A DNA stretch of 64,000 bases from Candidatus Obscuribacteraceae bacterium (GTDB lineage: Bacteria > Cyanobacteriota > Vampirovibrionia > Obscuribacterales > Obscuribacteraceae). The position numbers and the translations under genes were made by a program. How positions within the stretch are numbered: the stretch's first letter is position 1; every line of letters begins with the position of its first letter. Under the pieces are notes generated by a model. That model did not search any database. It was not told the origin of the DNA and saw nothing but the letters and a program-made list of their open reading frames with translations. Of the stretch, positions 5,301-52,423 are shown piece by piece. The DNA lies in contig JBGAHS010000001.1 of the NCBI GenBank assembly GCA_044226015.1, positions 1,280,001 through 1,344,000 of the forward strand, in the 5' to 3' direction.

Positions 5301-5339
5301 CGCTCTGAAAGAGTAGAGGAGAGAGACGCAACAGGGTCC

Positions 5340-7838: not shown

Positions 7839-7932
7839 CACCCAATTTTCGTATGATGCACTTTCGCGCGCCACGAAAATCGAAGAGCGCGCTGCTGGCA
7901 GTGTCACTTCGACGAAGCAACATGTATGGTGT
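7839..7932 (+). repeat. 94-bp direct repeat, copy 2
   Basis: 92/94 identical to 5207-5300. Confidence 0.95.
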
Positions 7933-7971
7933 GGAACGGCTAGATGTGAAGAAAGAGATGCGTCGGGAAGC

Positions 7972-13658: not shown

Positions 13659-14952
13659 TTGCTGCAGAGAGATAGCTGGCCATCGTGCCGCAGATGAGAG
13701 CCTTTACTCCCAATCGAGCCAGGTCGGCTCTTCTTGATGGTGCGATCTCCCCAATGCCACCAACCTGAATTGCAATAGAGCTGAGGTTAGCAAATCCACA
13801 AAGAGCAAAAGTCGCAATTGCTTCGGCTTGTGGACTCAATTTCGCTACACCGGTAGTTGCGGCATCTTTTATCATGGCTGAAAGGTCAGTGTAAGCAACA
13901 AATTCATTGAGCACAATCTTCTGACCCATTAGCTTTCCTACTATTGGTGCATCAGCCCATGGTACCCCGAGCATCCAGGCTATTGGTGCGAAGGCCAGAC
14001 CGAAAACGTCGAAAAGTTTCAAGTTGTCTAGATGTATTCCGATTGAAGTAAGATTTAACCCGGCTTTGAAAAGTAGTAAACCGAAAAAGCCCAGTACTTT
14101 GTCCGTTAGTGCAATTAACGCAATAAATGCAATTAGCATGGCCACTACGTTTAAGCCAATGCGTAATCCATCTGACGCACCATGGGCGGCGGCATCAATT
14201 AGATTTGCATTTGTCTTTTCTACGTGTACCTGAACTTTTCCTTTTGTCTGAGACTCTTCTGTTTCAGGATAAACAATTTTCGAAATGACGAGAGCGCCGG
14301 GCGCCGCCATGATACTCGCTGTGAGGAGGTAGGAAGCTTGAATGCCCATTCCTATGTATACTGCCAACACACCACCTGCAACACAAGCCATAGAGCCGGC
14401 CATGGATGCAAGCAATTCCGATTTTGTCATGGAAGGTACATAGGGTTTGATCAGTAGTTGAGCTTCTACCTGACCCACGAAAACTGATGCGGCGTTTGAG
14501 AGCGCTTCTGCTCCGCTGGCTCCCATAATAAAAGCGACGACCTTAGCAACAATTTGCACGACCTTCTGCATCAAGCCGAGATAGTAAGAGATGCTCACCA
14601 GGCTTGATACAAAGATGATTGTTGGAACGACGCGGAAAGCAAAGATGTAGTTGGCTCCGGGTCCGAAGAGTTCGACCAGTTTGTCTGGTTTTGTCACCAG
14701 AGGTCCAAAGACGAATCCTGCACCCTCATCAGAGAAGTGCAAAAGTTGCGTGATGAAGTCACCGACGTTTCTGAAAATTTCCTGCCCAATTGGTATTTTC
14801 AAAACGAAAATCGCAAGGCAAAGTTGAAGAACTATGCCACTTCCTACAAGGCGTAGATTGATAGCTTTGCGATTGTTCGACATCAAAAACGCAAGACCAA
14901 AAATCGCTGCAATACCGAGTAAACCGACGAGCCTTGACGGTTCGAAGTGCAT
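13639..14952 (-). CDS. nupC: CNT/NupC-family nucleoside transporter
   Basis: FAFRVVPTIIFVSSL, FVGQVEA, LNEFVAY, CGFANLSSIAIQVGG. Confidence 0.92.
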   Translation of the reverse strand: MHFEPSRLVGLLGIAAIFGLAFLMSNNRKAINLRLVGSGIVLQLCLAIFVLKIPIGQEIFRNVGDFITQLLHFSDEGAGFVFGPLVTKPDKLVELFGPGANYIFAFRVVPTIIFVSSLVSISYYLGLMQKVVQIVAKVVAFIMGASGAEALSNAASVFVGQVEAQLLIKPYVPSMTKSELLASMAGSMACVAGGVLAVYIGMGIQASYLLTASIMAAPGALVISKIVYPETEESQTKGKVQVHVEKTNANLIDAAAHGASDGLRIGLNVVAMLIAFIALIALTDKVLGFFGLLLFKAGLNLTSIGIHLDNLKLFDVFGLAFAPIAWMLGVPWADAPIVGKLMGQKIVLNEFVAYTDLSAMIKDAATTGVAKLSPQAEAIATFALCGFANLSSIAIQVGGIGEIAPSRRADLARLGVKALICGTMASYLSAAIAGLLH

Positions 14953-15052
14953 TAGCTATCTCCTTTTGGGTGACGGTCAAAAAATAAATAAGCAAGCCCA
15001 GGACAGTATTTGTCGTTGCTCTGGAAATGAATTTCTAAATTGCTGGCAATCA

Positions 15053-17302: not shown

Positions 17303-18274
17303 TTAAGCACGCGGATGGCTAGAGAGGTAGATTCTCCGCAATCTTTCCAGGCTTACATGAGTGTAAATCTGTGTTGTGCTTATGCTTGAGTGACCTAGAA
17401 GGTCTTGCACTACTCTTAAGTCGGCTCCGCCTTCAAGTAAATGAGTTGCGAAACTGTGTCTCAAGGTGTGCGGCGTGATTAGCTTTGTCAGTCCAGCAAG
17501 ACGAGCATACTTCAACACGATGCGGTGAACCGAGCGAGTTGAGAGTGGTGTCGCCTGACGGCTAACGAAAAGCGGTTCTTCTGGTGCCGGGTTTGGTGCA
17601 TCGGGAGCAATGCTGGTTTTCTCTGCCAGAGCTCTTGCGTCCAGATAGCGTTTAAGGCAATCTGTAGCACCCTGATTGAGAAGCACAACGCGCTCTCTGG
17701 AACCCTTGCCCAGAACTCGCATTTCCATGCTTTCCAGGTTGAGGTCACCAACGCGAGCCGCACTGAGTTCGCTTACACGCATGCCAGTGGCATACAGCGT
17801 TTCCAGAATTGCTCGGTCACGCAGACGGCTGAGTGATTCCGCTGTTTCGTCGCCTTGCGGTATTTGTGTCGCATCGAAAAGCTTTTGGATTTCGTCGCGA
17901 TCAAGACAGGAAGGCAATCTTCTAGATAATTTTGGTCCACGAACAAGCTTCGAAGGATCTTCTTCGATGAGCTGCTCGCGGCGCAAGTATCTGCAAAAGC
18001 TACGTATCGCAGATACCTTTCGCACAACAGTTTGTCGGCTGTAGCGATCTTGAATAGATTGAATATAGTCCTTGAGCTTCTCGGCCTCCAGAGTACCAGG
18101 GGTTTTGATTCCCTCGTTGCTGGGTGGTCCGGGAAGTTCTCCTTCAATCAGTTGCTTTAGGTCGTTTACATACGCCCGAATCGTGTTTGCGGAATAATTC
18201 CGCTCGAATTCAAGATATTGGGCGAATTGGTCGAGCCATTGCTGGGGAATTTGTTGAACCTGGGGAGTGTCCAA
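17303..18274 (-). CDS. xerC: XerC/XerD tyrosine recombinase
   Basis: SAM-like N-terminal domain; GMRVSE, GKGSRER, HTLRHSFATHLLEGGADLRVVQDLLGH, TTQIYTHV. XerC vs XerD cannot be resolved by eye. Confidence 0.88.
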   Translation of the reverse strand: MDTPQVQQIPQQWLDQFAQYLEFERNYSANTIRAYVNDLKQLIEGELPGPPSNEGIKTPGTLEAEKLKDYIQSIQDRYSRQTVVRKVSAIRSFCRYLRREQLIEEDPSKLVRGPKLSRRLPSCLDRDEIQKLFDATQIPQGDETAESLSRLRDRAILETLYATGMRVSELSAARVGDLNLESMEMRVLGKGSRERVVLLNQGATDCLKRYLDARALAEKTSIAPDAPNPAPEEPLFVSRQATPLSTRSVHRIVLKYARLAGLTKLITPHTLRHSFATHLLEGGADLRVVQDLLGHSSISTTQIYTHVSLERLRRIYLSSHPRA

Positions 18275-35929: not shown

Positions 35930-36601
35930 ATGGCTGTTGAATACGATCCCCATGCATTTTCCCCCTTTCGCACAGGCATTTATATTGCTACTGCAAGGTA
36001 TTTTTTTGGAACCATTTTTGCTATCCAAAACCATCTTGAATTTTCAGGACGTGAAAACATACCTCCTGGTCCTTGCGTTTTCGTAGGTAATCATCTTTCA
36101 AATTGGGATCCTCCCTTAATAAGCCGAGTAACAGATAGACCAGTCTCCTTCCTGGCAAAGAAAGAGCTTTTCTCGGACAAGTTTTTTCGGAATCTGGTTC
36201 TGGCCTATGGCGCTATTTCTATAGATCGAGAGAAGCCAGAAAAATCAACCTTCAAAGCAGTCAAAGAGATGCTAGCCAAAGGCTGGTGCCTTGGAATGTT
36301 CATCGAGGGAACTCGAAGTAAAACTCCCGGCATGCTTGGAACTCCCCAGATGGGCGCTGCGTATTTTGCCAAATTAAACAAGCTCCCGCTTGTACCAATC
36401 GGCATCGTTGGTACAAATGTAAAGCGTGGAAAAGTCTACGCCAAGATCGGAAAGCCGATTGCGCCCGAGGGGACCTTAGAAGAGATTAGCTGGAAGGTGA
36501 TGGAAGCTCTTTCTGACCTGACCGGTTTCAAGCTTCCTACTGCTATTGAAGATAAATCTGCAAAGAGTGCTGACGCGGATTCGGCGGACTCACAACGCTA
36601 A
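35930..36601 (+). CDS. plsC: 1-acyl-sn-glycerol-3-phosphate acyltransferase
   Basis: NHLSNWD, FLAKKELF, FIEGTRS. Confidence 0.9.
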   Translation: MAVEYDPHAFSPFRTGIYIATARYFFGTIFAIQNHLEFSGRENIPPGPCVFVGNHLSNWDPPLISRVTDRPVSFLAKKELFSDKFFRNLVLAYGAISIDREKPEKSTFKAVKEMLAKGWCLGMFIEGTRSKTPGMLGTPQMGAAYFAKLNKLPLVPIGIVGTNVKRGKVYAKIGKPIAPEGTLEEISWKVMEALSDLTGFKLPTAIEDKSAKSADADSADSQR

Positions 36602-37056
36602 GCCAAGCCTATAGCGGCGACCAAACCTAATTCCGCTGGGGTGAAGAGTTGTTCTTTATCAATTTCAGCTTTGAGCCTTTTTGGCGTTGTGGCTCTAAAG
36701 GTTATTGTGCTGTTTTCGTAGCGAAACGAAGTTGTTGCACCATCGCACAGAAAAGTGTATTCGCCGTCTGCGCTCTTGCCATTGTTGTATATTCTCGAGT
36801 GGAGAAATTTGATGCGTTTTGAGAAAGCTCGCGCTTTAGCATTGGCTACTTCCTCCACACTAGGTTTGTGAGCCTCGCCCATGTTGCGCATAAAGATGCC
36901 TCTGGCTACGCGAACAATCACACCTTTCCTGGCTAGCTCGCTCAAATTGCGGTCTATGCAGTTTCGTGGAGCTAGATGGGCAAAATCTCTCGATACGAAC
37001 AGTTTGCCATCTTCTGTGTTGCGAATTTTCGCCTTAATAGATGCGGAATAGTCCAT
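36598..37056 (-). CDS. DUF6088 / AbiEi-like winged-helix protein
   Basis: GKLFVSRDF...IDRNLSELARKGVIVRVARGIF...PSVEEVANAKAR. Confidence 0.7.
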   Translation of the reverse strand: MDYSASIKAKIRNTEDGKLFVSRDFAHLAPRNCIDRNLSELARKGVIVRVARGIFMRNMGEAHKPSVEEVANAKARAFSKRIKFLHSRIYNNGKSADGEYTFLCDGATTSFRYENSTITFRATTPKRLKAEIDKEQLFTPAELGLVAAIGLA

Positions 37057-37202: not shown

Positions 37203-40043
37203 TTAGACGATGGCGATTTTAGTCTTGTCTGGAAAAGGCAGGTTCTCTATAAACCACTTGTGGCGGACCTTTTGACTGGTTAAGACGATCAATTGACAGT
37301 GAGGTAGCACCTTGTGAATAAGCAAGTCCATGCATCCAGTAAATCTGCGGTCATCTAGATCACAAAAAGGTTCATCTAGCACTACTGGTAGTGGCAATCG
37401 ATTAACAATGTATCGGCAAAGCATCAGGCGCATGATCCAGCTAATCTGCTGGCGCAAACCACGCGAACATTTTGCATCGAGTTCGCTTTCATGCAGTGTC
37501 TGGTCCTGATCTCTGAGGGTCACGGTGATATCGAGGTTATCGTCCCAGTCAATCTTTGCCACATCAAGATCCATATCCTCTAGCATGTCTGTCGAGATGG
37601 CAGCGAGTTCTTGAGACCAGGATGTTTTGCTTTCTCTTGCAACTCGCATAAGTGTCTCTTTTGCCAGGTTAATAGATGCTCGATTTCTCCTAATCAGCTG
37701 CAGGTCTCTTTCTAAAATTTCCACCTCATGTTGAGTCTTTGGGTGAAACTCGTCGAAGTTCTTAATTGCTTCTCTGACGGAATTACGAAGGGCATTTATT
37801 CGTTCCTCACGTCCCTCGATTTGATCATGAAGTTTCTGCAAGTCACCGTGACCCATGCGACCTATTTCTTCATCTTCAATTGTTTCGCCAAGAATGTCCG
37901 GGTATTTTGCAATCAACTCTTGCATGAAGTTCCATGCATCTGCCCGGCGGTGTTGCAGTTTCGCCAGCATCTCAGTCAAGTCATTTTCAAAGACTTCTGA
38001 ATTGCTGATTTCGCTTTCCACGCGTTCTAATTCTTGTTTCAACGATTCCCAGTTTCGATAGACTTTGCACTGACCTTCGAATTCCTCGAAGGAGTCATCG
38101 ATGTTCTCTGGGTCGCGTAGATGTGCTCTTTCGAAGTAGTCAACGAGGACTGCATCAATCTCAGCTAGTTCGCCTTCAAGGAATTTTCTTTCAGACTTAC
38201 GGTGATTTACTACTGCGGTGCTTCTTTCTAATTTGCGCATACTCTCGCGATGCCAGAGTATTTCTGATGCAAGGACTGAGATAGCAGCTGCTGTGACGAT
38301 ACTCGAGCCTCGGTTCACCTTTTCCAGGTAGACCATACCTTCTTTGCTCAGGCTTTGCAGATTTTGCTCGCGACTTTCCAGCATTTGCTCCAGAATGTCG
38401 AGTTGTTTCAAACGTCCGGCAAACATTGCGTAGGTCTGCAATTTCTTAAAGAGTTCAGCGCCACTTTCCATTCCGTACTTTTGCGCTATTTGTTCTCCCT
38501 CACTCTGAATCTTCGCTATCAGATCGCTGAGGTTGATTTCTTTTTGATCGGAACTTCCTTGCTGTTGAATCAGACCTTCGACTTTGCTTTCAAATTGTTT
38601 GCGCACACCTGAAAGCAAGGGTGGTAAGAGCAGCAGACCAGCGACAGACAGCACAAAACTCGTTTGGAAGATTGTTCCTAGAACTTCTTGCTCTCCAGTT
38701 AGAGAAAATAGAACAATGAGTGCAGACGCCACCACGAGTGACAGCATTACGTTTCTAATTTTTCTGAACTTCAGGTCGAAACCTTTGATTTCCTCATGAA
38801 GGTCTTTTAGCTGAGCTCCGGCTCCCTGGCTGAGTTCAACCAGGTTCTGAAGCTTGTCTTTTTGTCTCTTAAGGTCATTTGCCAGCGTATTAGCTGTTTC
38901 AATGTCTGAAGGGCTCATACCCAAAACGGTTTTTCGAATCAGTGCAATGTCGTCGAATCTCACCCCAGCATCTTTGACACGACGCATCTCTTTATCACGC
39001 TCTTGTCGCAGCTGTTCAATTTCCGCCTGTGCGCCAGCTATAGTTTTCGACAATCCAAACAGTTGTTGAGAATCTTCAATTGTAAACTGCTCAAGCTCTT
39101 CATTGTGAGCGGTCAAAATATCTTCTTGTGCTTTGGTGTCTTGAATGCTCTTTAACAGCTCGTCGTCGTGCCGTTGCAAGTCAGCGAGTCGTGATTGGCG
39201 ATTGACCCACAACTCCTGCACTTTGCGTTCTCCAGCTACTGGAAAATTGGCGATGTGCTCAACTTGCTTGATTTGCTTATTCAAATCTTCAAGTTGATAC
39301 AGCTTTTGCTGAACCATCATTATTCTTGCATCTAGTTCTGCTGTCTCCAGGCAGAGGCTGAAATATTCTTCTCGCTTGAGTACGTCTTTGTCTAAAGCTT
39401 GCTCTGACTCCAATTGTTTTAATTCATCAATGAGAGTTCCTGCCTCAGCTCTTTCGCGCTCTAACTGTCCAAGCCTCTCTTCCAGTACTACCTTTCCACG
39501 GTTGAGTCCGGTAAGAAGATCATCTATTCGATAAGTTTTTCCTTTGAAGGGATACTTCTCTTGTTTCTCTTCAACCAGGCGAATAGCGCGTTCGATATTT
39601 CTGTTCTGTTCCGTTTTGCTTGCAAGCTGACCCAGCAAATTGAGACGAACTCCACGATCTGCAAGCATTGAACTGCTACCTTCATCTTGCCCAATTAATA
39701 GCAAGGTCTGGAACATTTCTTTGCTTACGCCAGCGAATTGGTCATTGGCGATTTTTGCCGCTTCAGGCGGACTGAAGTCGAGCTGCTTTTCTTGAAAGTT
39801 ACGTTTGAGAACTATTTGCTGATCATCTATTCTCAAATATAAACTGCCTTCTTTGAGGTCGGCGGCACCTGGGATGATCTCATCTTTGTTGCTAGAAATA
39901 ATATTCGATATGGTGGTGAACAAATCAGACTTGCTCTGCTCTTCTTCAGTGCATAGCAAATTCAAACGATCAGGTTTGAAGACAAATTCTTTAGGTTCGT
40001 CCTCAATTCTTTTGGTTGAATAGTAGGCTGATTCAATCTGCAT
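37203..40043 (-). CDS. YhaN/SbcC(Rad50)-like coiled-coil ABC-ATPase-fold protein with two central TM helices and degenerate Walker A and H-switch
   Basis: Walker A position CTEEEQSKS; Q-loop IGQDE; signature CSRG; Walker B VVLDEPFCDLDDRR; H-switch position LTSQ. Confidence 0.8.
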   Translation of the reverse strand: MQIESAYYSTKRIEDEPKEFVFKPDRLNLLCTEEEQSKSDLFTTISNIISSNKDEIIPGAADLKEGSLYLRIDDQQIVLKRNFQEKQLDFSPPEAAKIANDQFAGVSKEMFQTLLLIGQDEGSSSMLADRGVRLNLLGQLASKTEQNRNIERAIRLVEEKQEKYPFKGKTYRIDDLLTGLNRGKVVLEERLGQLERERAEAGTLIDELKQLESEQALDKDVLKREEYFSLCLETAELDARIMMVQQKLYQLEDLNKQIKQVEHIANFPVAGERKVQELWVNRQSRLADLQRHDDELLKSIQDTKAQEDILTAHNEELEQFTIEDSQQLFGLSKTIAGAQAEIEQLRQERDKEMRRVKDAGVRFDDIALIRKTVLGMSPSDIETANTLANDLKRQKDKLQNLVELSQGAGAQLKDLHEEIKGFDLKFRKIRNVMLSLVVASALIVLFSLTGEQEVLGTIFQTSFVLSVAGLLLLPPLLSGVRKQFESKVEGLIQQQGSSDQKEINLSDLIAKIQSEGEQIAQKYGMESGAELFKKLQTYAMFAGRLKQLDILEQMLESREQNLQSLSKEGMVYLEKVNRGSSIVTAAAISVLASEILWHRESMRKLERSTAVVNHRKSERKFLEGELAEIDAVLVDYFERAHLRDPENIDDSFEEFEGQCKVYRNWESLKQELERVESEISNSEVFENDLTEMLAKLQHRRADAWNFMQELIAKYPDILGETIEDEEIGRMGHGDLQKLHDQIEGREERINALRNSVREAIKNFDEFHPKTQHEVEILERDLQLIRRNRASINLAKETLMRVARESKTSWSQELAAISTDMLEDMDLDVAKIDWDDNLDITVTLRDQDQTLHESELDAKCSRGLRQQISWIMRLMLCRYIVNRLPLPVVLDEPFCDLDDRRFTGCMDLLIHKVLPHCQLIVLTSQKVRHKWFIENLPFPDKTKIAIV

Positions 40044-41256
40044 CTGGAGTCGTCACCGATCCTTCGCGAATGGCTTCCAATCCAAAATAAAGCGCATCAG
40101 TGATGATTGCTACTTTTTCAGAGTCTCTTTCCATGTTGGTATGAAGTTCGTTTCTCAAACCACCAAGAATGCAGGCGTACTTAGACTCAATCTGATTTTT
40201 CAAACTTATTGATTCTAGATAATTAGGACGAATGTTGACCTTTGATTTCAGATGGAAATAGTCGCTCTTCATCTGTTCAGTGATTAACTTCACATCTGCG
40301 CCCACAGGGTAGAGTCCGCTAGCATTAATGAGCAACACATCTATATTCTTTCGTGCACCACTTTCTTTTATTTCTTTTTCAAGGTCCATACTCAAAACAT
40401 TTGGGTCTCTGCCGCTTATATCAAAATCTATGTTTATGATGCGTCGCGGGTCAAACTCCTCTGTTTGCATGGTCATCTCGATTCCCGAGCTCATGCGGCG
40501 GTCGAGATTGGCGAAGATAGCCGTTCTTGGACCCAGTTCTTTGGCTGTCAGTCCTACAAAAGTGCCAGAGGCACCGGCAAAAATGACCTCATCTTCTTCT
40601 GATTTCAAAATCGACTGATTTTTGAAACCTGAAAATGCGATGTAAGAGTAACCTCTACTCTTGAACTTTTTGCTAAGTTCGTTCCTCGATTTTTCCGTAG
40701 CTGCGTCCGCTAAACCAAGTGGTAGCAGCAGAATGTTTATTGCTGCCTTTTCAGCTTTTTGCAGCTCTGGAATGTAAGGCATGCGTCCGCGATTATCTTT
40801 GGTGAGCGCAATGCCGCTAATCTTGATTGAATCTTTGCCGGGCAAATTGAAACTATGAACAGTGTTTGCCCCGAAAATGTGAACATTATCTGACCATGGT
40901 TCAAGTCCTCTGGCTCGCAGGACAGACTCATCATAAAGAGAGTCGCTGTGTAGAGGATCTGACGCTCCGGGAGCAATAAAAACGGGGATTTCCTGCAAGC
41001 GTGCAAATATTTTTTGAACGCTTGCAAGAGTGCTAGTACTCACGTTTTCAGCATCGAACAAATTGCCTGGAATCAGAACGGCGTTAACGTCATTGCTAAT
41101 TGCAACTTTAATAGCTGCAGCCAGTGCTTCGATTGATTCTTCGCTTCTTTGCTTTCGCTGCGACGGACTCAAATGAAGTGACATTGAAGCGCTAGAGTCC
41201 AGGTTCAGATCAGAAACCTGACAAAAGGAGAAGCTTACAAAATCACTCTGGCTCAT
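40033..41256 (-). CDS. YhaO/SbcD(Mre11)-like metallophosphoesterase-fold protein lacking metal ligands
   Basis: SDLNLD, PGNLFD, PGASDP, YIAFSGFK in place of DxH, GDxxD, GNHD, GHxH; C-terminal ALYFGLEA. Confidence 0.8.
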   Translation of the reverse strand: MSQSDFVSFSFCQVSDLNLDSSASMSLHLSPSQRKQRSEESIEALAAAIKVAISNDVNAVLIPGNLFDAENVSTSTLASVQKIFARLQEIPVFIAPGASDPLHSDSLYDESVLRARGLEPWSDNVHIFGANTVHSFNLPGKDSIKISGIALTKDNRGRMPYIPELQKAEKAAINILLLPLGLADAATEKSRNELSKKFKSRGYSYIAFSGFKNQSILKSEEDEVIFAGASGTFVGLTAKELGPRTAIFANLDRRMSSGIEMTMQTEEFDPRRIINIDFDISGRDPNVLSMDLEKEIKESGARKNIDVLLINASGLYPVGADVKLITEQMKSDYFHLKSKVNIRPNYLESISLKNQIESKYACILGGLRNELHTNMERDSEKVAIITDALYFGLEAIREGSVTTPDAD

Positions 41257-41267: not shown

Positions 41268-42470
41268 CTACAGCAGCTCGAGTATTGTTGCCATGCCTTG
41301 CCCTACACCTATGCACATAGTAGCTAATCCGTACCGTGCTTTCTGTCTCTGCATCTGACGAGCCAGAGTACAGATAAGTCTGGCGCCACTCATGCCTAGA
41401 GGGTGCCCCAGTGCTATGGCACCACCATTGACGTTGACCTTGTCCATATCTAACTTAAGTTCATCAGCGCTTGCTAAGACTTGTGCTGCAAAAGCCTCGT
41501 TCAATTCGAATACGTCGATATCATTTACGGTTAGATTTGCTCTGTGCAGAACTTTTTGTGTTGCGGGCACGGGGCCTATGCCCATGCATGATGGGTCGAC
41601 TCCTGCGGCTGCAGCGCCTACCCAGCGAGCAATAGGCTTCAATCCGAGGTGGTTTGCTCTTCCTTCAGACATCATCAGCACAGCGCAGGCACCGTCATTG
41701 ATACCGCTTGAGTTTCCTGCTGTTACTGTTCCGCCATCTCTGAATGCTGCTTTCAGTTTTTGCAGGTCGGCTAGCGTAGTCTCTGGTCTCGGATGTTCGT
41801 CCCTGTCTACTATTTTGGGGTCACCCTTTTTCTGGGGAATGCTTACTGGAATAATCTCTTCGGCAAATATGCCAGCTTCTTGAGCCTTGCCGCATTTTTG
41901 CTGACTGCTTAGGGCAAAGGCATCTTGCCTTTCTCTGCTGATTTTATATTTCTCGGCAACATTCTCTGCTGTCTCACCCATGCTAAAAGGATGGTGCATT
42001 GCTGCCAGTTTGGGGTTAGTGAATCGCCAACCTAATGTCGTGTCGAACATTTTCAGGTCGCCTCGGGGAAAAGCAGCCTCAGGCTTCGCCATGACGAAGG
42101 GAGCTCTAGTCATAGATTCGACTCCGCCTGCTATGAATACTTCTCCTGCGCCAGTTTGAATTGATCTTGCTGCCTGAGCCACAGCCTCCATACTCGATGC
42201 ACACAGACGATTGACCGTAACACCACCGATATTGATGGGTAGTCCTGCTAGCAAGAGCGACATGCGAGCAACATTTCGATTGTCCTCGCCTGACTGGTTG
42301 GCGCAGCCAAGAATAAGATCCTCGATTTCCGCTGGGTCAACCTGGCTGTTTCTTTTCATGAGTTCAGCGATAACATGAGCCGCCAGATCGTCTGGACGAA
42401 CATCCTTTAATGTTCCACCATATCTCCCGATTGGAGTTCTGATTGCATCAACGATAACGACTTCTTTCAT
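41268..42470 (-). CDS. Acetyl-CoA C-acyltransferase (thiolase; PcaF/PaaJ-like)
   Basis: [39 protein letters not shown]. Confidence 0.93.
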
Positions 42471-42504: not shown

Positions 42505-44499
42505 CTACATTGCCAATCGAGGAGTGGCTATCCATAGCTCTTCATCTTTGCTCAGTGTGTCCAGTACATCCGCCTGAGTCTTGGGATTGCTGGCGACGGC
42601 TCTTCTAACTACTGGATTTTTGTCTTTTGACAAATTCGCAAGCACTGCTGCTGGACAATTTTTGTTTTCTGCAACAGTCATGCGCACCCAGCTTTCACTG
42701 TCAGCAGAGAGCTTCTCAAGGATGCTTGCGTCCGCCTTCGTACTTCGAGCCACTGCCGTTCTCACTTCCTGGCTAGGGTCCGCCTGTAACTGCAAGAGCA
42801 AGTCGGGAGGTGATTTCGCTTTATCAACGGATTCTGCTCGAAGATCAGCGTCGTGAGATTTTGCATACTCCTGCAACAAATCAGCCGGACAGTTTGCGTG
42901 TGAGGCAATCTGTAATTTGAGAGAGTCACCAGAAATTTTGGATAGAACGCGAATTGCATCTTCCGGCAGATCCGCCCGCGATAAGAGGAGTCTTCTGAGA
43001 ACGCCATCTTTGTCATCTGAGATTGCCACAAGTGCTTCTGCGCTCGTAGAAGGGTTTTGTGCAAGCGCTATGCGTACGTTGTCGCTATCATCTTTGCTCA
43101 AAATTGCGAAGGTGGCTGCGTCGATTCCTTTGTTTTCAGCTAGATGTTGACGGACTCGTTCCACTGAATCTTTTGTCAATACAGAAATTATGCTGCCTGG
43201 AACCTTCTCGTTGCGTGCCAGTTCTCCTCTAACTACCGACGAACTGTCCTTTACCAAAATGCTAGCGGAATTGGAGCGGATTTTAGGGTTGCTAGCTAAC
43301 AAGCGTCTCACCAGTGGTGAAGTGCTGTTTGCAATTTTTTCTTCCAGCTCTGGGCTCAAGTCTGCACGAGACGCAAGCCCTTGTAAAACAGCCAGAACCT
43401 TATCATTTACCAGGCTTGAAGCTGTCTTCGCGTCCAAGCTCGGATTTAGTGAGACTGCGGTGCGTACCAGAGGATCTTTGTCTGCGGCTAAAATTGTGAG
43501 AGTCTCCACAGAAGTGCTCTTGTTGTGAGCCACTGCTTCCCTGACGCCAGGATTTGAGTCCTTCGCCAGCAGCTGTAGCACTGTCAGTGGTGCGCCAGGG
43601 TTCACTGCGAGGTCCATCCGGACCTCATAATCGGAGTCTTTGTCCAGCTTGTCGAACACCTCTTTGGGAGTCGCTTTGTTACAGGCAATTGCTTGTCTGA
43701 CAATGAGATTATTGTCCGCGGACAAATTAATCAGTGCTTGTGATGGAGTATTTGGGTTTGCTGCACAAAATGCCTTAACACCCAAATCACCATCGTTTGA
43801 TAGGGTCAACAAAACGTTTGAGTGAGCATTGTTTTGCTTGGCTAGGAATGTGCGCAACATTCTGTCGCCAGTTTTCGCCAGACGTTCCTGGACATCAATT
43901 GGTGTGTTGGGATTGCGTGCCAGTGCAAGTAAAAGATATTCAGTTATCACAGGACTGACCACCAACTTTCGCAGTAGGTCCGCTGGCGTTTTGCGGTGCG
44001 ACGCTAAGAGTTCGTATGTTGAAGGGGGCTGTCCGCTCGTCAATTTCTCAAGAATTTCGCGAGAGGGGAAATTAGGTCCTCGAAGGAGTGCTTCTCTTAC
44101 GCGCTCGTCTTCATCGTTTACTAGCTGAGCCTGCAGAGCGGTGGAACAAGATGGATTTGCGATGACAGCCATCTTTACCAGCGCTGATTCATCTTTGGCG
44201 AGATTCTGCAGTGTTGAGGAGGACGTTGACGGATTTTGTGCAACCGCCATTTTGATGTGCTGTGCTGGAATCGTTATTCCGGCTGGAAGCAAGGATTGTC
44301 GGGCAGTGCTTTGCAGCGGATTATCAGCAGTCTGAGAGCCCTGTTCCGCTTGACTGATGAGGACATGGTCCACATTTCGGGATGCGTTTGCGTTTAGTTC
44401 TGTTGCAGCAAGTGTTTGACCTTGCGTCGTTGCCATAAAGCTGAACGATAAGGCAATCAACAGTTTTGCCCTGTCCGTGGACATTTCGAGCCTCCTCAA
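42505..44499 (-). CDS. Exported leucine-rich-variant (LRV)/HEAT repeat protein
   Basis: Many ~24-aa repeats of type VRxAVAxNPxTPxxxLxxLAxD; signal-like N-terminus. Confidence 0.85.
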   Translation of the reverse strand: MRRLEMSTDRAKLLIALSFSFMATTQGQTLAATELNANASRNVDHVLISQAEQGSQTADNPLQSTARQSLLPAGITIPAQHIKMAVAQNPSTSSSTLQNLAKDESALVKMAVIANPSCSTALQAQLVNDEDERVREALLRGPNFPSREILEKLTSGQPPSTYELLASHRKTPADLLRKLVVSPVITEYLLLALARNPNTPIDVQERLAKTGDRMLRTFLAKQNNAHSNVLLTLSNDGDLGVKAFCAANPNTPSQALINLSADNNLIVRQAIACNKATPKEVFDKLDKDSDYEVRMDLAVNPGAPLTVLQLLAKDSNPGVREAVAHNKSTSVETLTILAADKDPLVRTAVSLNPSLDAKTASSLVNDKVLAVLQGLASRADLSPELEEKIANSTSPLVRRLLASNPKIRSNSASILVKDSSSVVRGELARNEKVPGSIISVLTKDSVERVRQHLAENKGIDAATFAILSKDDSDNVRIALAQNPSTSAEALVAISDDKDGVLRRLLLSRADLPEDAIRVLSKISGDSLKLQIASHANCPADLLQEYAKSHDADLRAESVDKAKSPPDLLLQLQADPSQEVRTAVARSTKADASILEKLSADSESWVRMTVAENKNCPAAVLANLSKDKNPVVRRAVASNPKTQADVLDTLSKDEELWIATPRLAM

Positions 44500-44613: not shown

Positions 44614-47067
44614 CTACTGCCTTTCTGGCTTTTTGGACGGCGGCATTTTGTTTTGTGTATTTTGATTAGAGTTGTTTGGCTTTTGTGGAAGGGGAGGCAT
44701 TTTTGGAGGTCTTGGCATGGATGGTTCGCTAGGAGCTGCCGGACTTGGCACCGTATTCGGTGGCGGTTGAGTTTCTCCGGCGCCTGGCTTCTTCGGAGGC
44801 GAGTTGTGATTAGCGGTTGATTTAGTGGTCGGCATGCTGCGGTTTAAGCTTGAAGCTTCAGACTGCATACTTGCTGATGGTAAATTTTGATTTGCGCTTT
44901 GTGGCTTAACTGGGGGCATGTTTTGATTTGAACTTGCAGGCTTAGCTGGGGGCATGTTTTGATTTGAAGTCGCTGGACTTAATGCATGTATGTTTCGATG
45001 CGAATTTTTCGGGCTCGCTTCAGGCGTGTTCTGATTTGAATTTGCAGAATTGGAATTGACTGAAGGTAGATTCTGGCTAGAACTGCTTCCATTGTTCATT
45101 CTGGGCAGCTGTGGGCTATGTCTGCTTTCGGTTGCTTTGATCGCTTTCAAGCCCGTGTTCGAATCATTTGGAGCGAGCGGAATTTCTGAATGCGAATCGC
45201 TAGGAAAGCGATAATGCCGCCCGATAAGTTGCTTCAGTTCTGAAAGCTCTAGCTCTTGTGCTGCATGCTCAACATACTTTGCTTGCCAACCGTCGAGCGC
45301 TTTTCCGAGATTTGAAAGTGATAAAGCTGAAGCTTTAGCTGCGGCGAGGTTCACTCCGACCTCGCAGTGGTTAAGCGTAAGGGCCCGTGAGATAGCCGAG
45401 TAGCCCTGGCTTTCTCTTAGCGCGATTTTCAACAAAGCTTCGGAATGTTCTGAGCCTATGCGCGAACTGACTATAGATATGATCTTGCGAAAGTTTGCTA
45501 GCGGTTGAGACAGGTCTTGAGATACGACTCGCATTAACTCGTAATGTATTAATCTAGAAATAGCAAATGCGACCTGGCATGATGTAACGTTTCCGATCTG
45601 TCTGATGATATCAGATACGGTGCTCAGCCCATCTGCGGCGCGCCACACAGACCGCATCGCCTCCATTTCATCGGGACTTAATTCATATGCTTCCTGAGGG
45701 TCGGACAGTGTCTGTGCCAGCAGCCCCTGTCTATCGGGAAGTTTCTCCAGTACGCTCTTATCTCTTAGAGCCATTTTTTTCCAAACAGACTCGATGTTGT
45801 CGCTTGCTAGAGCTGAATCTAGCAGTAATTTGTCGAGCGGTCGGGTTATTTTGCAATCTTCAGTTGAAATATCGGGAGGCGCTGGACGTTCCATGTAAAC
45901 AAAAACGCCTTCTTTCCATACAGAAACAAACTCTGTGACGGCGTTGTTTGCCCGAAGTTTATTTAGCTTGGCGAATGTTAATCGTCCCTGGTCGAAAACA
46001 GCTTTAAATGACTGATCTTTGTAATCAACGACAACCACCCCACTAGCTCTGTTGCTGGCAAGGTTTTGCAATACGCCTGCAGCGTCTGTGGTTCCAAGAT
46101 TACCTATAAGGGACTGTACGTGTCCTTCGTCATACTCGACTCTGACTTTTTCATTTTCTGTGTCTCGAATTTGCCCAAAGAATGATAGGTCTTGCAACGC
46201 TAACTCAAGCTGTCTTGCGCTCATGAATCCCTTTGCTACAGCCATAGAGCCTATTGACAGACGAGTCTTTTTCGTCTGCAGCATTGCGCTTTGCACTTCG
46301 TCTAATTGATCGCGCGTTAGCAATTGAGATTCGATCAAGTAATCTTTCAACTTGAACTGCCTTCCGTTTTGGAAGTTCTGAACTAGAAAAGGAATCTTCG
46401 CAAATATGGGGTAGATGGCTCGCATCTTTTCCAATTTCTTCAGCTCTTTCTGCAGTGACTCGAAGTCATATTCAGAAACAAATCGTTGCGCCAGTGTATG
46501 GAGGGGCGTGTAATTGTCGATTGCCAGAAGCACAGCCTTATTGTGATTGCGTTTTTCAGAACCTGTCTTGAGCTTGATACCGTATGTGGTTAGAACTGGA
46601 ATTGACGTGAGTAATATTTGCTCTGCTAAATTTGTGCTTTCTCTGCGGACCTCAATTGATTGACCCATGGCTTGTTGAATACTTTTAGCAATCAAGCTGG
46701 AGTAGTCATAGACTGCGGAAAAAGATTCAAAGACATGAAATGATAAGAACCCCGTTTGCTTCTCTTTTATAAACGCGGCGGCTCTGTCCTTCGTAATGAA
46801 AACGAGTGCTCCTTGAACTGCCAGGAAAATTTTTGCGAAAGCGGATGCGTTTACCAGAAACTCTGCGGGGAAAAGCAGCCCGGACTCAATTGTTTTCACT
46901 ATGACAATGTCAAAGAGTCTTCTTGATTGCGTTAGTGCCTCGAGTTCTTCCAAGGTTCGAGGACCGAACTGCATAACCGCAATGTTCTCATCGGAGACCG
47001 CCCGTAGACGCATGGTTATGTCGTCTACATCGCATGAATCAAGCCAGCTTCCGGGATCATTTGACAT
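44614..47067 (-). CDS. Multidomain protein: MshEN-like repeat + DUF4388 (PATAN-like) + low-complexity tail
   Basis: KLKDYLIESQLLTRDQLDEV...SIGSMAVAKGFMSARQLELAL; GNLGTTDAAGVLQNLASNRASG...VFDQGRLTFA...WKEGVF. Confidence 0.7.
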   Translation of the reverse strand: MSNDPGSWLDSCDVDDITMRLRAVSDENIAVMQFGPRTLEELEALTQSRRLFDIVIVKTIESGLLFPAEFLVNASAFAKIFLAVQGALVFITKDRAAAFIKEKQTGFLSFHVFESFSAVYDYSSLIAKSIQQAMGQSIEVRRESTNLAEQILLTSIPVLTTYGIKLKTGSEKRNHNKAVLLAIDNYTPLHTLAQRFVSEYDFESLQKELKKLEKMRAIYPIFAKIPFLVQNFQNGRQFKLKDYLIESQLLTRDQLDEVQSAMLQTKKTRLSIGSMAVAKGFMSARQLELALQDLSFFGQIRDTENEKVRVEYDEGHVQSLIGNLGTTDAAGVLQNLASNRASGVVVVDYKDQSFKAVFDQGRLTFAKLNKLRANNAVTEFVSVWKEGVFVYMERPAPPDISTEDCKITRPLDKLLLDSALASDNIESVWKKMALRDKSVLEKLPDRQGLLAQTLSDPQEAYELSPDEMEAMRSVWRAADGLSTVSDIIRQIGNVTSCQVAFAISRLIHYELMRVVSQDLSQPLANFRKIISIVSSRIGSEHSEALLKIALRESQGYSAISRALTLNHCEVGVNLAAAKASALSLSNLGKALDGWQAKYVEHAAQELELSELKQLIGRHYRFPSDSHSEIPLAPNDSNTGLKAIKATESRHSPQLPRMNNGSSSSQNLPSVNSNSANSNQNTPEASPKNSHRNIHALSPATSNQNMPPAKPASSNQNMPPVKPQSANQNLPSASMQSEASSLNRSMPTTKSTANHNSPPKKPGAGETQPPPNTVPSPAAPSEPSMPRPPKMPPLPQKPNNSNQNTQNKMPPSKKPERQ

Positions 47068-48023: not shown

Positions 48024-48859
48024 GGCGTTCTGTTACGAACTTCTCTAGCTTCGGTTTCTGCCGCATCGGCATCGCCACTGCGATTCTGACTCTTGTAAAA
48101 CGCCGCGAGATTGTTAAGTGCTTCTGAGAGTTCTTGAGAGTTGCCTTTGTGCTTGCGCACTGTGTTTACGTAAGTTTTGAACATTGATTCTGCTTCAACG
48201 ACATTGCCTTCCTTATATAACACCTGAGCGAGGCTTCTTTGACTTTCCGCAAGCACGCTTGATGAATCTGGACTGTAGCTGAGCAGGTTGCCAGCATTGG
48301 CGCCACCGTTTTCGTTTATCTGAACGACCCGTTTCAAAATTCGCTCAGCATCGGAATATCGACCCTGCCTGGTGTACAAGGTGGCAAGACTGCTGAGTGT
48401 GTTGGAGACTTCAATTGAGCCAGGCAAGCTCGTCGGATTTTGCAAAACGTTTGAAACAAACGTCCTGGTATTCAAAAATTCGCCGTTGGAGTCACTTAGG
48501 GCGCCGGAGTATCCGCTGGTGATTATGAGTGAGCGAATGAGGAAGTGCTCGGCGTCGCTGAGTCTGTTGTTATTCATATAAAACGTGCCAAGCAGGCGCG
48601 CCGTCTTTCCGGAGACGGAGGACATAGCTCCTGCGCCTCGGACAGATAAGGTTAATGCCTGATTCAGCTTAGTTTCTGCTGTTGAGATATCGCCTTCGCC
48701 GTTAGCCTTTTGTGATTCTTCAATCAGGTTGTTAACGTCGGAGATTGTGTCAGCAAGCGAGGCTGGTGGAACTGTTAGCATGATAATTAGCAAGCCCACT
48801 GCAAAAAAGCAGGACTTAGTCCATGAGCGCCCGGTGAAGTTGTTTGCCAGTCCAAGCAT
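48020..48859 (-). CDS. Exported TPR protein
   Basis: Signal-like N-terminus; TLSSLATLYTRQGRYSDAE and ALNNLAAFYKSQNR repeats. Confidence 0.8.
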   Translation of the reverse strand: MLGLANNFTGRSWTKSCFFAVGLLIIMLTVPPASLADTISDVNNLIEESQKANGEGDISTAETKLNQALTLSVRGAGAMSSVSGKTARLLGTFYMNNNRLSDAEHFLIRSLIITSGYSGALSDSNGEFLNTRTFVSNVLQNPTSLPGSIEVSNTLSSLATLYTRQGRYSDAERILKRVVQINENGGANAGNLLSYSPDSSSVLAESQRSLAQVLYKEGNVVEAESMFKTYVNTVRKHKGNSQELSEALNNLAAFYKSQNRSGDADAAETEAREVRNRTP

Positions 48860-51659
48860 GTTTTTCCAGTTTTGAATCGAGCTCTTTGAAGATGGGCAGT
48901 TCCAATTCGCTCAATCTATGAGTCTCGCTTTTATTATAGAGGAGTCTTCTCAGTCTCTGGTTGCAAACTATAACAATCTTGTTAGGAGCATTTTGTCTGC
49001 ATAAGAACTGAGGGGAGTTAGCGAAGAGTTTCTGCTGTGTTTTGTTGAGTTTGGTAGAAAGGTAGTTGCTGAGTGAGGTTTCTAATTCAGTTTCCAGCCA
49101 GTTTTGTAGAGCTTCTCTCATTTCGGGAAAAGGGCGTTCAAGTTCGAGTTCTTTAATCGCATTTTCCTGCTGGCGAAGAAATTCTCTAATCACAAGTTCA
49201 GCAAATTCTCTTTTGTTTTGAACGAAAAGCCTTGTTTTTTGTTTTGCGCTTTGTTTCTCGATGATAAGGCTTTCCAAAATGGAAAATTCACTAGCAGAGC
49301 ATTGGAAGCTCTCTTTTATAGAATTCAAAATAAGAGCGTCAAGCTGCTGCTCAAGGCTTTCCAATTGGCTTGCTGCTTTGTTCTGTTCTCTGATAATTTC
49401 GTCGCAAATTTTTTCCGCGTCGTCGTTTTTGGAGAGCTGGATGATTCTTTTGTCTGCGGAGTAGTGCAGGCGAGTTTCATCAAAGAATTGAATTGTTTCT
49501 TTTGCCTGCAGCGCCTGGCCTGCGATCTTCTCTAATTCTTTTCTGCCGTCATTGCCAATTTGCAGTAAGGGAATCTGTTTGATATCGCCCACCTGGCAAT
49601 TGAAGGTAGGGTTAAGCAGTGCCATGCAAAGTCCAGCGAAACTTGAGTTTAGATAGGAGAGCATGTATGCGAGATCCGCCTGGTTCGCGAAGAAAAGGGC
49701 TGAGCCTCCGACATCGAATATTGCTCTTTCCGTCATTTTTCTAACCGCAAAAGCGCCGGTTGAGACGAATGAAAAAGTCAGTCCTTCTCTAAAATAGTAT
49801 TGTTCGTTTTTTACTACCCAGGACGTTTTTCCTTTGAGATAGGGATAATTTGTCTCGACAGCTGCTTTAATATCGCTACCGTCTTTGCCCCAATCTACCA
49901 CTGTTTGGCAGGCGGCCTGCCATCTTTCGCTGCCGGCACCTTTAATGTAGGGATGCCAGCGAACACTAATTTCTTCAGGCAAGACGTCCCACCAAAATCT
50001 GACAAAACGGTCATTATCACTGGTGGCTAGTCCTTGTTTGACCTCTGCTATTTCGCCAAGCTTTGCGGCATCATTCATGATGCGCTGGAGGATTGATGGA
50101 CATTTGTAGTTAAAGGCGTAGGCGCGATTTTCAGAGAGCGTTTCATAACTTAGGGTTTGGAATTTCTGTTCTGAATTATCGTCACAAGCGAGTTGCAGTG
50201 CCTGCTGTTTGTCGCTGCATTTACTGATGTCTAGAAACTCTGCCGAGCTTCTGTCTGATGAATTAAGAGAGTCAGTTTCGTCTGGCTCATTTGGTTTTCG
50301 TGCGGATTTTGCAGGTGTTGATTTGCTCGTTTTCGCGTCGGCGATTTGTGCTTTGGCTTCGAGCTGGGGCGCCGCCTGGGGAGCTGCCTGGGGAGCCGCA
50401 GTTTGCTCAAGCACAATCAGCATGCTATTTATTTTCTCTCCTGCCACGAGTGGAAATACACCAGTGCCTAATTCCACTACGGAGAGTAAGTGGTTCCTGT
50501 TGAGCAATTCTTTTCTGAGTTCACCATAACTGGGAAGAAACAGTAAGGATGATTGTGTAATGAATGACACTCGCCCGGATGGCTTGCAAAGCTCGAGTGC
50601 GCGAACAAGAAATGCTGCGCTTATATCATTGTGAGCTGTTGGGTATTCTGCTTTCAAAAATTGTTTGAGTCGGCGGTCGAGTAGTCGTCTACCAATGTAT
50701 GGGGGATTGCTAATTACAGCATCATATTTTTTTGAAAGAGTGTGATTGCTATGCCATTCTCGGTTTAATGAGCCTGTTTCTACATCTGAGTGGTTCTTAC
50801 TTGCGATGGAAACATCAGTTAGATTTAGCGATAACGAGAGGAGAAACTTCTCGCCTTGCTCTTCAGTTAAATGGCTCAGAGCTTTTAGCGCCAAAGCGAA
50901 GCCGCAAACCCAAAGAGCCTGAGAATCTAAATCGCTGCCATGAATGCAATTATTCAAAATGTTGCTTGTCGAAAACTCTGGGGATAATCCTTCAAGCTGA
51001 TGCAACTCATACAAAAGATCGAATGCTGCTAGAAGGAGGTGTCCTGAGCCTGCCGCGGGGTCTATGACTCTCAAGTTCGCGGCAGGGGAGGTTTCCGACG
51101 ACAGTTCTCTCCTATATATACTTTTGAAGTTCGTTTGTTTCTCCCTTGCAAATTGCCAGCGTGGCAAGATTGAGTTTGCTGCAAGATAGGCAGCAATCCA
51201 TCGTGGTGTGTAGAGTTGCGTAAAGTGGATGAGATCTTCTTTTTCACTTTTCTTGTCTGCGCTCTGAATTCTATCAAGGGCTTTTCTTCGAGCTGATTCG
51301 CAACTGAACTGATAAAAGTAGCCCGCAAAGTTTTCGTCGAATTGATCAAGTGTTTCGGATTTCTTTCGAAGTTGCCTCGCAAGTTCATGCAAGTTCGCCT
51401 CTCTAACGTTGTGTTCCGCTGGGATTTTGCTTTTGAAGTTTTCATCCAGAGAAGCTACAAGTTTCAAAATCTGTGTAGTACTAACTTTGTTTGCAATGCC
51501 CTGCTTCTCTCGTCTGCGAATTGCTTCTGCGATCAGCAGTTCTTCAAGCGAAAACTCGCTACTGCTCTCGCTTCCGCCAGCAGACTTCTGCAAATTGAAA
51601 TAGAACTTTCGCAATGACGAGAGAAACTTTTTGGCATCGTCCAATGAAGTCGTTGGCAT
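48816..51659 (-). CDS. BREX PglX(BrxX)-like N6-adenine DNA methyltransferase; likely start ATG 51659 (track ORF starts 51707)
   Basis: FTQLYTPRWI, DPAAGSGH, NPPY, QGLATSDNDRFVRFWW, NEQYYFREGLTFS, IFDVGG; TAATG coupling to the upstream gene. Confidence 0.85.
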   Translation of the reverse strand: MPTTSLDDAKKFLSSLRKFYFNLQKSAGGSESSSEFSLEELLIAEAIRRREKQGIANKVSTTQILKLVASLDENFKSKIPAEHNVREANLHELARQLRKKSETLDQFDENFAGYFYQFSCESARRKALDRIQSADKKSEKEDLIHFTQLYTPRWIAAYLAANSILPRWQFAREKQTNFKSIYRRELSSETSPAANLRVIDPAAGSGHLLLAAFDLLYELHQLEGLSPEFSTSNILNNCIHGSDLDSQALWVCGFALALKALSHLTEEQGEKFLLSLSLNLTDVSIASKNHSDVETGSLNREWHSNHTLSKKYDAVISNPPYIGRRLLDRRLKQFLKAEYPTAHNDISAAFLVRALELCKPSGRVSFITQSSLLFLPSYGELRKELLNRNHLLSVVELGTGVFPLVAGEKINSMLIVLEQTAAPQAAPQAAPQLEAKAQIADAKTSKSTPAKSARKPNEPDETDSLNSSDRSSAEFLDISKCSDKQQALQLACDDNSEQKFQTLSYETLSENRAYAFNYKCPSILQRIMNDAAKLGEIAEVKQGLATSDNDRFVRFWWDVLPEEISVRWHPYIKGAGSERWQAACQTVVDWGKDGSDIKAAVETNYPYLKGKTSWVVKNEQYYFREGLTFSFVSTGAFAVRKMTERAIFDVGGSALFFANQADLAYMLSYLNSSFAGLCMALLNPTFNCQVGDIKQIPLLQIGNDGRKELEKIAGQALQAKETIQFFDETRLHYSADKRIIQLSKNDDAEKICDEIIREQNKAASQLESLEQQLDALILNSIKESFQCSASEFSILESLIIEKQSAKQKTRLFVQNKREFAELVIREFLRQQENAIKELELERPFPEMREALQNWLETELETSLSNYLSTKLNKTQQKLFANSPQFLCRQNAPNKIVIVCNQRLRRLLYNKSETHRLSELELPIFKELDSKLEKHAWTGKQLHRALMD

Positions 51660-52423
51660 TAGCTCTTCTGCGAGTTTGCTTCCATGAAGGCTAGAGTCAG
51701 TTGCCATGCGTCAGTTGCGGCTTCACGATGGTAGAACTCTCTTGTGTCATTAAAGAATGCGTGTTTTGCGTTAGGATAGATTTTGATATGCGTTTTCTTT
51801 CCGAGATCGAGCTGCTTTTTCTCTAACTCATTGATGTGCACAATTGGAATCAAATCGTCGATGCCACTGAAAAGTCCAAGGAAAGGACAATTGAGTCCGC
51901 CGGTGTAAGAAATTGGGTGGCGAGGCTTTTCTGTGGTGATGTCCTGGTAGTAAATTCGTCCGTAGTAGTCGATGGCATAAGCGAGTAGGGGTGTTCTTGC
52001 TGCAAATAAGTATGCGATAGCGCCGCCCATGCAGTAACCCAGCGTCCCGATGGCTTTGGGGTTAACTCTTGCGAATTTGCGGGCGTGGTCGAAAACTGAC
52101 TGGAGATCGCTTATCAGCTGCTCGTCAGGGATGCTTGCCCAGACGGCTCTCATCGCTGCCAGATCGTTACGGTCGTAAGGCAAATTTGGATGGTATGCAA
52201 AAAGGTCGGGTGCAAAAACTATGTAGCCTTCCTGGGCGAATCTCCTGGCAACTTCTCGGATGTGTTCATTTACGCCAAAAATCTCGTGAATGAGAATCAG
52301 TGCCGGATAGACTTTGTTGTCATCAGGAGCTGCACAATAGACTGGAAGGCTGCCCCCGCTTCTTTTAATGCTGAATTCCTCTTCGAAAAGGCCAGAATTC
52401 GAATTGGGATGGCGGTCATGCAT
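51659..52423 (-). CDS. Dienelactone hydrolase family protein
   Basis: HEIFGVNEHIREVARRFA, GYCMGG, YPNAKHAFFND. Confidence 0.93.
   Translation of the reverse strand: MHDRHPNSNSGLFEEEFSIKRSGGSLPVYCAAPDDNKVYPALILIHEIFGVNEHIREVARRFAQEGYIVFAPDLFAYHPNLPYDRNDLAAMRAVWASIPDEQLISDLQSVFDHARKFARVNPKAIGTLGYCMGGAIAYLFAARTPLLAYAIDYYGRIYYQDITTEKPRHPISYTGGLNCPFLGLFSGIDDLIPIVHINELEKKQLDLGKKTHIKIYPNAKHAFFNDTREFYHREAATDAWQLTLAFMEANSQKS

Follow-up and report, generated by a model that had tools for sequence, protein, structure and literature searches.

The closest described counterparts of the gene pair considered here are SbcE and SbcF (YhaN and YhaO) of Bacillus subtilis, in which an sbcD-like gene lies directly upstream of a similar-sized SMC-like gene and SbcE is reported to act in the mending of double-strand breaks and in competence (PMC2811018). 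The same report describes SbcE as having a split head, two long coils, a hydrophobic central domain and no CxxC hook. A pair of the same build was found in a 64,000-nucleotide stretch of Candidatus Obscuribacteraceae bacterium (assembly GCA_044226015.1, contig JBGAHS010000001.1, positions 1,280,001 to 1,344,000; hereafter the window), where the gene for the nuclease-like protein P0001 precedes that for the SMC-like protein P0002. P0002 shares the features listed for SbcE, the likeness of its central hairpin to the hydrophobic domain being one of position and hydropathy. Unlike SbcE/SbcF, the pair has lost the phosphoesterase ligands (one of seven is left) and the P-loop glycine, and the locus has no yhaM downstream, its neighbours being genes for a DUF4388 protein, an LRV-repeat protein and a thiolase. 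Because two defining features fail, the metal ligands and the Walker A motif, the pair was not classed as a working SbcE/SbcF; judged by its motifs, it is built like that system and descended from that type without being a working member of it. It is a vertically inherited, single-copy core locus of the YhaO/YhaN (SbcF/SbcE) type and a real, selected pseudo-enzyme pair that shows no recent decay. We lean towards its acting as a coiled-coil scaffold that is static and, by prediction, held in the inner membrane, with the nuclease site lost and the ATP cycle most likely lost too. The features of the pair, all on the minus strand, are as follows.

40033..41256, minus strand: P0001, a pseudo-nuclease of the Mre11/SbcD/YhaO fold, 407 amino acids (aa), with nuclease and capping domains, a C-terminal helix-loop-helix and one of seven metal ligands
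40036..40200, minus strand: residues 353-407 of P0001, a C-terminal helix-loop-helix with helices at 355-373 and 379-398, equivalent to the Rad50-binding element of Mre11
40033..40043, minus strand: 11-nt stop/start overlap of the two genes, the same in 86 of 92 loci
37203..40043, minus strand: P0002, a YhaN-type protein of the Rad50/SMC fold, 946 aa, with a split ABC head, a long antiparallel coiled coil and no CxxC hook
39927..39950, minus strand: degenerate Walker A of P0002, residues 32-39, with the Gly before Lys and the Asn gone and K38-S39 present
38604..38750, minus strand: two hydrophobic segments of P0002, residues 432-480, a predicted membrane hairpin at the coil apex (hydropathy 2.37 and 1.97)
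37272..37274, minus strand: H-switch position of P0002, with Gln924 replacing His in the motif alignment

Mre11-Rad50/SbcCD shares with the pair the layout of nuclease, capping domain and helix-loop-helix on one side and a Rad50-like head and coil on the other, as seen in the structure models and fold searches. In contrast to that system, the pair lacks the di-metal site and the zinc hook, carries a predicted membrane hairpin and has a P-loop that is degenerate. The SMC-like anti-phage ATPases (Lamassu LmuB, Wadjet, Gabija and Septu) have the ABC/SMC fold in common with P0002 and appeared as lower-ranked fold matches, and intact orthologues match such anti-phage profiles weakly (best LmuB, E 6e-11). 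A defence system was considered and rejected, as PADLOC 2.0 returned no family for P0001 or P0002 at E 0.01 and the locus is a fixed, single-copy one near rpoBC throughout the order, not a patchy defence island. No account of such a pair was found in the literature searched on YhaN/YhaO/SbcE/SbcF, Obscuribacterales and pseudoenzyme SMC-like proteins; a 2020 ABC-ATPase classification (PMC7544218) lay outside that search and may mention inactive members.

Degeneration of the two active sites

A preliminary description, made from the window alone, had proposed two intact overlapping reading frames of 407 and 946 aa with altered metallophosphoesterase motifs, and both proposals held. The two frames overlap by 11 nt, which probably couples their translation, and D16 was found to be the sole survivor of the seven metal ligands when P0001 was compared with orthologues that carry all motifs. 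The other six positions have changed (H to N18, D to N65, N to A98, H to P179, H to G210 and H to K212) and the catalytic histidine position is occupied by S99, so that the di-metal nuclease site (motifs I-V) is absent and the nuclease is, by motif, clearly dead. The substituting residues differ among members of the genus and therefore no alternative metal site is conserved. Across nine sequences in which both activities appear dead, D16 and N65 are invariant despite the otherwise varying ligand positions. The fold itself has been retained: the AlphaFold model of P0001 has a predicted local distance difference test (pLDDT) score of 89, its best fold match is Mre11 (E 1.5e-12), and the capping domain and C-terminal helix-loop-helix are both present. 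The profile search that had been suggested gave weak matches of P0001 to Metallophos (E 9e-5) and Mre11 (E 9e-7). A complex prediction of P0002 (residues 1-944) with residues 345-400 of P0001 scored 0.30 against a mark of 0.32, with control complexes not folded, and is neutral; hints of subunit interaction come from the coupled genes and from a 64-aa remnant in the genome G001, described below.

P0002 has no Pfam match, AAA_27 included, though AAA_27 was matched by 10 of 21 aligned orthologues and the nearest Atlas clusters are AAA_27/YhaN proteins (0.99). Its model (pLDDT 81, predicted template modelling score 0.40) matches Rad50 and Smc6 (E 7e-16) and shows an SMC-like layout in which the head is divided into an N-terminal and a C-terminal half and there are two long coiled coils. 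Eight of the ten ATPase residues scored are retained, namely K38-S39, Q119, the S and G of the signature, the DE of Walker B and the Asp of the D-loop; the two that differ are the Gly that precedes the Lys of Walker A and the His of the H-switch, the latter change (Q924) being as first reported. The Walker A glycines had also been reported as gone. This stands for the Gly before Lys, since the motif reads SKS where a recognisable one has GK[ST]; the first Gly is already absent from the whole local family, in which intact-looking orthologues carry E/V-x-N-E-Y-G-K-S, so that just two losses, of the Gly that precedes Lys and of the Asn, are specific to the lineage. Retention of the Q-loop and Walker B was borne out, whereas the signature (CSRG, compared with LSxG) and the D-loop (CDLD, compared with SEAD or SESD), also thought to be retained, are kept only in part. 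The claim that both active sites were lost is thus clear for the nuclease and less clear for the ATPase.

From its motifs, the ATPase of this genome appears less clearly dead than those of the congeners G003, G004 and G005. The other four genomes of this genus (g1) keep two to six of the ten residues, the SMC-like proteins of G003 and G005 have neither Walker A nor the Walker B Asp, and the Walker A Lys is present in five of seven genus members. The case for a dead ATPase therefore rests on the genus as a whole, in which the P-loop drifts freely. Dead and intact proteins cannot be told apart by the net charge of the head (means -8.6 and -10.0 respectively).

No CxxC zinc hook is present in P0002. 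The two central membrane helices of the preliminary description correspond to the hydrophobic segments at residues 432-480, and a two-segment hairpin was observed in 81 of 92 SMC-like sequences; it is missing from g7, g35, g8, g102 and one truncated row, and a further truncated row has a single hydrophobic segment. The g7 and g35 loci, with an intact ATPase and a lost hairpin, are the mirror image of this genus.

Distribution and order of the losses

A profile of P0001 relatives was run over 107 genomes of the order Obscuribacterales. The nuclease-like gene was found as a single copy in 92 of them (in G195 split over two contigs), and no internal stop was observed among 93 profile matches. The gene order DUF4388-LRV-thiolase-nuclease-SMC is conserved across the order, often on the contig that carries rpoC2, and homologues of the pair were assigned to Candidatus Obscuribacterales. 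The outgroup G098 has all nuclease and ATPase motifs, while long representatives from outside the order carry GK[ST] in 91 of 97 and two central hydrophobic segments in 82 of 97; judged by these motifs, the ancestral pair looks to have been active, as does the family outside the order. When metagenomes were scanned for close relatives, distant homologues (22-38% identity) were all that came back. A sequencing artefact was rejected, as proteins 96% and 91% identical carry the same dead motifs.

Motifs were counted in 89 pairs, 88 from the order and one from the outgroup; G012, G181 and G195 (nuclease N-terminus missing from the extraction or contig) and G185 (contig without the SMC-like gene) fall outside this count. 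All seven metal ligands were present in 24 pairs, ten with GNHD and 14 with GNRD, a variant that may be active in the Mre11-type fold. One to five ligands together with an intact Walker A were found in 50 pairs and a broken Walker A in 15. Walker A is intact in all 39 pairs with at least five ligands, and 14 of the 15 pairs with a broken Walker A have at most one ligand. The losses are nested across the order, with the nuclease site lost first and the ATPase later. The orthologues whose collection had been suggested thus place this pair at one stage of a series that reaches beyond what the preliminary description had in view.

The ATPase motifs were lost at least four times. On an RpoC2 tree of 38 rows (trees were built as LG+G4 quick trees and with FastTree; g8, g102, g40 and g12 had no match and are off the tree), the ATPase-dead label requires five changes, at least four of which are forced by well-supported (starred) branches. 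As G019 keeps GKST, its ATPase-dead label was taken from the Walker B, the signature, the Q-loop and the H-switch. The congener G001 carries a 64-aa open reading frame that matches only the helix-loop-helix (profile positions 359-426, E 3e-8) and overlaps a 964-aa SMC-like gene. In G019, G199, G057 and G189 the SMC-like gene follows the thiolase directly and there is no nuclease gene. The ATPase motifs are broken in all five of these genomes, G001 included, and the hairpin is present in all four that were scanned.

Selection and the site of conservation

Of the 55 differences between contigs of close strains (depth 2-5), 40 were listed, and these comprise 32 silent changes and eight replacements, giving a ratio of replacement to silent polymorphism (pN/pS) of about 0.07. 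Within the genus the silent sites are saturated (pS 0.71-0.89), so that pairwise non-synonymous to synonymous ratios (dN/dS) are unusable and were replaced by the strain variants and by rates normalised to the LRV gene. The SMC-like proteins of G003 and G005 are 85% identical at saturated silent sites despite having no Walker A, and in the genera with a degenerate nuclease and an intact ATPase the omega of the pseudo-nuclease is 0.02-0.08. Canonical close orthologues with dN/dS near 1 had been named at the outset as the mark of recent decay; what we observed is that all seven full pairs of the genus are degenerate, with nuclease-subunit identities of 40-67%, and that present-day pN/pS is far from that value. 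The proposal of a preserved, non-enzymatic, membrane-anchored scaffold is supported by this outcome.

At matched LRV divergence, 14 pairs within the genus were compared with 246 pairs from lineages with a dead nuclease and an intact ATPase, the pairs being non-independent. Conservation of the heads was lower in the genus (N-head 0.34 versus 0.58, C-head 0.50 versus 0.65), while that of the coil segments was higher (0.62, 0.48 and 0.49 versus 0.45, 0.39 and 0.37); the C-terminal coil base stood at 0.51 versus 0.56. Nuclease residues 1-130 were unchanged (0.57 versus 0.59) and the second half of the nuclease, helix-loop-helix included, was relaxed. In this genus conservation has moved from the heads to the coiled coil.

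Neighbouring genes and paralogues

The genes upstream of the pair form a conserved cluster with it.

41268..42470, minus strand: thiolase, syntenic upstream gene, retained even where the pair is gone
42505..44499, minus strand: protein of LRV/HEAT repeats whose N-terminus resembles a signal peptide and whose gene is lost along with the nuclease-like one
44614..47067, minus strand: DUF4388 (PATAN-like) protein, whose gene opens the conserved cluster and is retained where the pair is gone

The LRV protein is a candidate functional partner of the pair. In a set of 80 genomes with a completeness of 85% or more, the LRV and the nuclease gene occur together in 71 and are both absent from seven, while G196 has the LRV gene only and G162 the nuclease gene only. 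The seven double losses fall in about four lineages, and the thiolase, which lies between the two genes, is still present in all six of these loci that were fetched; therefore two deletions were required each time. Since it is kept even where the pair is lost, the thiolase itself is probably outside the machine. The N-termini of the LRV proteins resemble signal peptides by eye.

DUF4388 corresponds to the PATAN domain, which in Synechocystis has been reported to bind the pilus motor PilB1 (bioRxiv 10.1101/2021.06.11.447907), and SbcE is described as localising to the DNA-uptake pole (PMC2811018). ComEC was found in 74 of the 80 genomes. A link of the pair to pilus or DNA-uptake machinery is only a guess, and an improbable one in our estimate, because DUF4388 and ComEC persist where the pair is gone. 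The DUF4388 protein has 817 aa here compared with about 620-700 aa in complete orthologues; Ser, Asn, Pro and Gln abound in the additional C-terminal part.

A search of the host genome for an active paralogue, as had been suggested, recovered SbcD (C6) and SbcC (C12, with the CxxC hook present) and a further Mre11/SMC pair on C9 with canonical motifs and no hairpin. All of these are distant from the locus pair (profile E 7e-15 or weaker), unlinked to it and without the hairpin. A separate SbcD was found above the family cut-off in 38 of 39 high-quality genomes of the order. Some congeners carry a canonical YhaO/YhaN pair, and a strong YhaN-type AAA_27 match was observed in two of five other both-dead genomes tested.

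Other features of the window and of related loci

Promoter and terminator scans at the locus gave results at or below chance. A metatranscriptome yielded one 222-nt contig within the P0002 gene, which comes from a small-share run and is no demonstration of transcription. Directly 3' of the P0002 gene lies a DUF6088/AbiEi-antitoxin-like gene (36598-37056, minus strand); DUF6088-like reading frames were also seen by eye downstream in G006 and G004, and they are not found order-wide. A 963-aa Eco57I/N6-methyltransferase-like gene (48816-51707, minus strand) is flanked by reading frames without evident nuclease or BREX neighbours. Elsewhere in the window we noticed an IS66 transposase (1884-3458, minus strand), a 1297-aa protein whose sole Pfam match is a weak Peptidase_M16_C and whose gene overlaps that of a nucleoside transporter (9765-13658, minus strand), and a tyrosine recombinase adjoining a penicillin-binding protein gene (17303-18274, minus strand). 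Between about 55000 and 64000, several minus-strand reading frames look like the antisense shadows of a single repetitive gene of great length on the plus strand, which runs past the end of the window; the guanine-cytosine content there rises to about 0.50.

In related genomes, the DUF4388 and LRV genes of G197 (G197:C3:121292-125200) have been relocated from upstream of the thiolase to directly downstream of the SMC-like gene and so remain linked to the pair. An inserted block common to G199 and G019 separates plsC from the orphan SMC-like gene (about 4000-9700 of the fetched loci); its genes were labelled by eye as SurE-like, short-chain dehydrogenase, phosphotransferase-like and acyl-CoA-dehydrogenase-like. 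In G016, where the pair is missing, a membrane-protein block beside the thiolase (G016:C5 locus, about 7500-15300) is one that we take, by eye, to resemble a hydrogenase/NADH-dehydrogenase-type operon. A frame change at about residue 280, probably an assembly error, splits the rpoC2 gene of the same genome (G016:C5:619922-623592).

Proposed mechanism and alternative explanations

The scaffold reading is preferred because the rod is the part kept longest by selection. Following the architecture of Mre11-Rad50, the hairpin at the coil apex would insert in the inner membrane, and the coil arms of about 270-340 residues would hold the heads in the cytoplasm. A coiled coil rises 0.15 nm per residue, which would give these arms a length of roughly 40 nm. 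The pseudo-nuclease would grip the coil base through its helix-loop-helix and its dimer surface would link two rods, in line with descriptions of Mre11-Rad50 in which the helix-loop-helix binds the Rad50 coil (PMC7752040, PMC3258140) and the nuclease domains dimerise (PMC7752040). The head module of Thermotoga maritima is reported to have bound double-stranded DNA only when dimerised by ATP (PMC3258140); with no ATP-driven head engagement, the pair would not clamp double-stranded DNA as Rad50 does. The selected feature would be the rod, as a spacer or tether and probably together with the exported LRV-repeat protein, and DNA processing would presumably be left to the separate SbcCD.

Several observations weigh against this reading. 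Eight of the ten key ATPase residues are still in P0002, and the His to Gln change alone is no proof of a dead ATPase because a T. maritima Rad50 double Cys mutant of the His-switch together with the D-loop is reported to stay about 66% active (PMC3258140). The hairpin is not always needed, as g7, g35, g8 and g102 are without it. The pair is dispensable in some lineages, since the locus has neither gene in G016 or G011, and the pair was not found in G188 and G196. Current selection is directly shown for P0002 only, because 39 of the 40 listed strain variants fall in that gene and just one in P0001. Constraint on the nuclease is relaxed in this genus, with a nuclease-to-LRV dN ratio of 1.23 compared with 0.28-0.83 elsewhere, and for another both-dead lineage, g19, a single pair without a control gene gave omega values of 0.22 and 0.18. 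Conservation of the helix-loop-helix is nothing special in the genus (0.43 versus 0.69), and the clamp-only reading frame of 64 aa occurs in one genome only, a search for others having returned the query alone. The LRV gene is kept without the nuclease gene in G189 (66% complete) and G196, and ComEC is kept in G016, G011 and G188, so that there is no co-loss with competence.

The retained ATPase residues could instead mean that only the nuclease is dead and that the SMC-like head still binds or slowly hydrolyses nucleotide, the pair serving as a membrane-tethered clamp that holds DNA or as a sensor, as the ATPase-intact genera probably do. Besides those residues, the Walker A Lys in most genus members fits this account, and nuclease-deficient E. 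coli SbcCD-H84Q is reported to still bind DNA with its ATPase down by just about 15% (PMC6265447), while B. subtilis SbcE is described as functional despite a deviant Walker A (PMC2811018). We nevertheless regard it as unlikely: the P-loop is acidic and varies freely in the genus, G003 and G005 are strongly conserved although they lack Walker A and the Asp of Walker B, no part of P0002 is more relaxed than the head halves, and the nuclease domain has been deleted outright in several relatives. Slow decay of a system redundant to SbcCD, with the frames kept open only by the mild harm that polar effects or truncated coiled coils in the membrane would do, would explain why both genes are finally gone altogether in G016, g5 and probably G196, why rates are raised in the both-dead lineages and why a canonical SbcD is found order-wide. 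It sits poorly with the lack of internal stops, the low present-day pN/pS, a coil as conserved as in ATPase-intact lineages or more so, and both-dead frames that have outlasted silent-site saturation; moreover, a clean deletion would erase any such cost, and clean deletions of neighbouring genes do occur at the locus. Decay is thus decidedly unlikely. Least credible, and very improbable, is a reading close to one alternative of the preliminary description, in which the dead proteins are regulatory pseudo-subunits mixing with an active paralogue, for which SbcCD and the C9 pair of this genome and the canonical YhaO/YhaN pairs of some congeners might serve. These paralogues are very distant, unlinked, without the hairpin and patchy, with the strong AAA_27 match in only a minority of the both-dead genomes, whereas the locus pair keeps its own coupled partner and the 11-nt overlap.

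Implications for the SbcE/SbcF family

SbcE/SbcF is assumed to be a backup DNA-repair nuclease. The order Obscuribacterales provides a natural deletion series, with at least four repeats for the ATPase, and in it the rod outlasts catalysis. More tentatively, proteins of the YhaN/SbcE type may have a second, non-enzymatic job as a membrane-anchored strut that has repeatedly outlived the repair chemistry in this order, and could form with the exported LRV protein a new envelope or cytoskeletal element, possibly one that positions the pilus or DNA-uptake apparatus. On that account the nuclease would have been lost first and the ATPase second, and the Mre11 partner would then have been pared to a helical clamp or deleted. 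This locus adds the ordered and repeated series, with end states in which only the clamp or an orphan SMC-like gene is left, the move of conservation towards the coil and the joint loss with the LRV gene. The order also offers matched natural sets for a membrane-anchored SMC-like complex, namely active, nuclease-dead, both-dead, clamp-only and hairpin-less. The series suggests that the conserved function of the family needs no cutting and, in some lineages, no ATP turnover.

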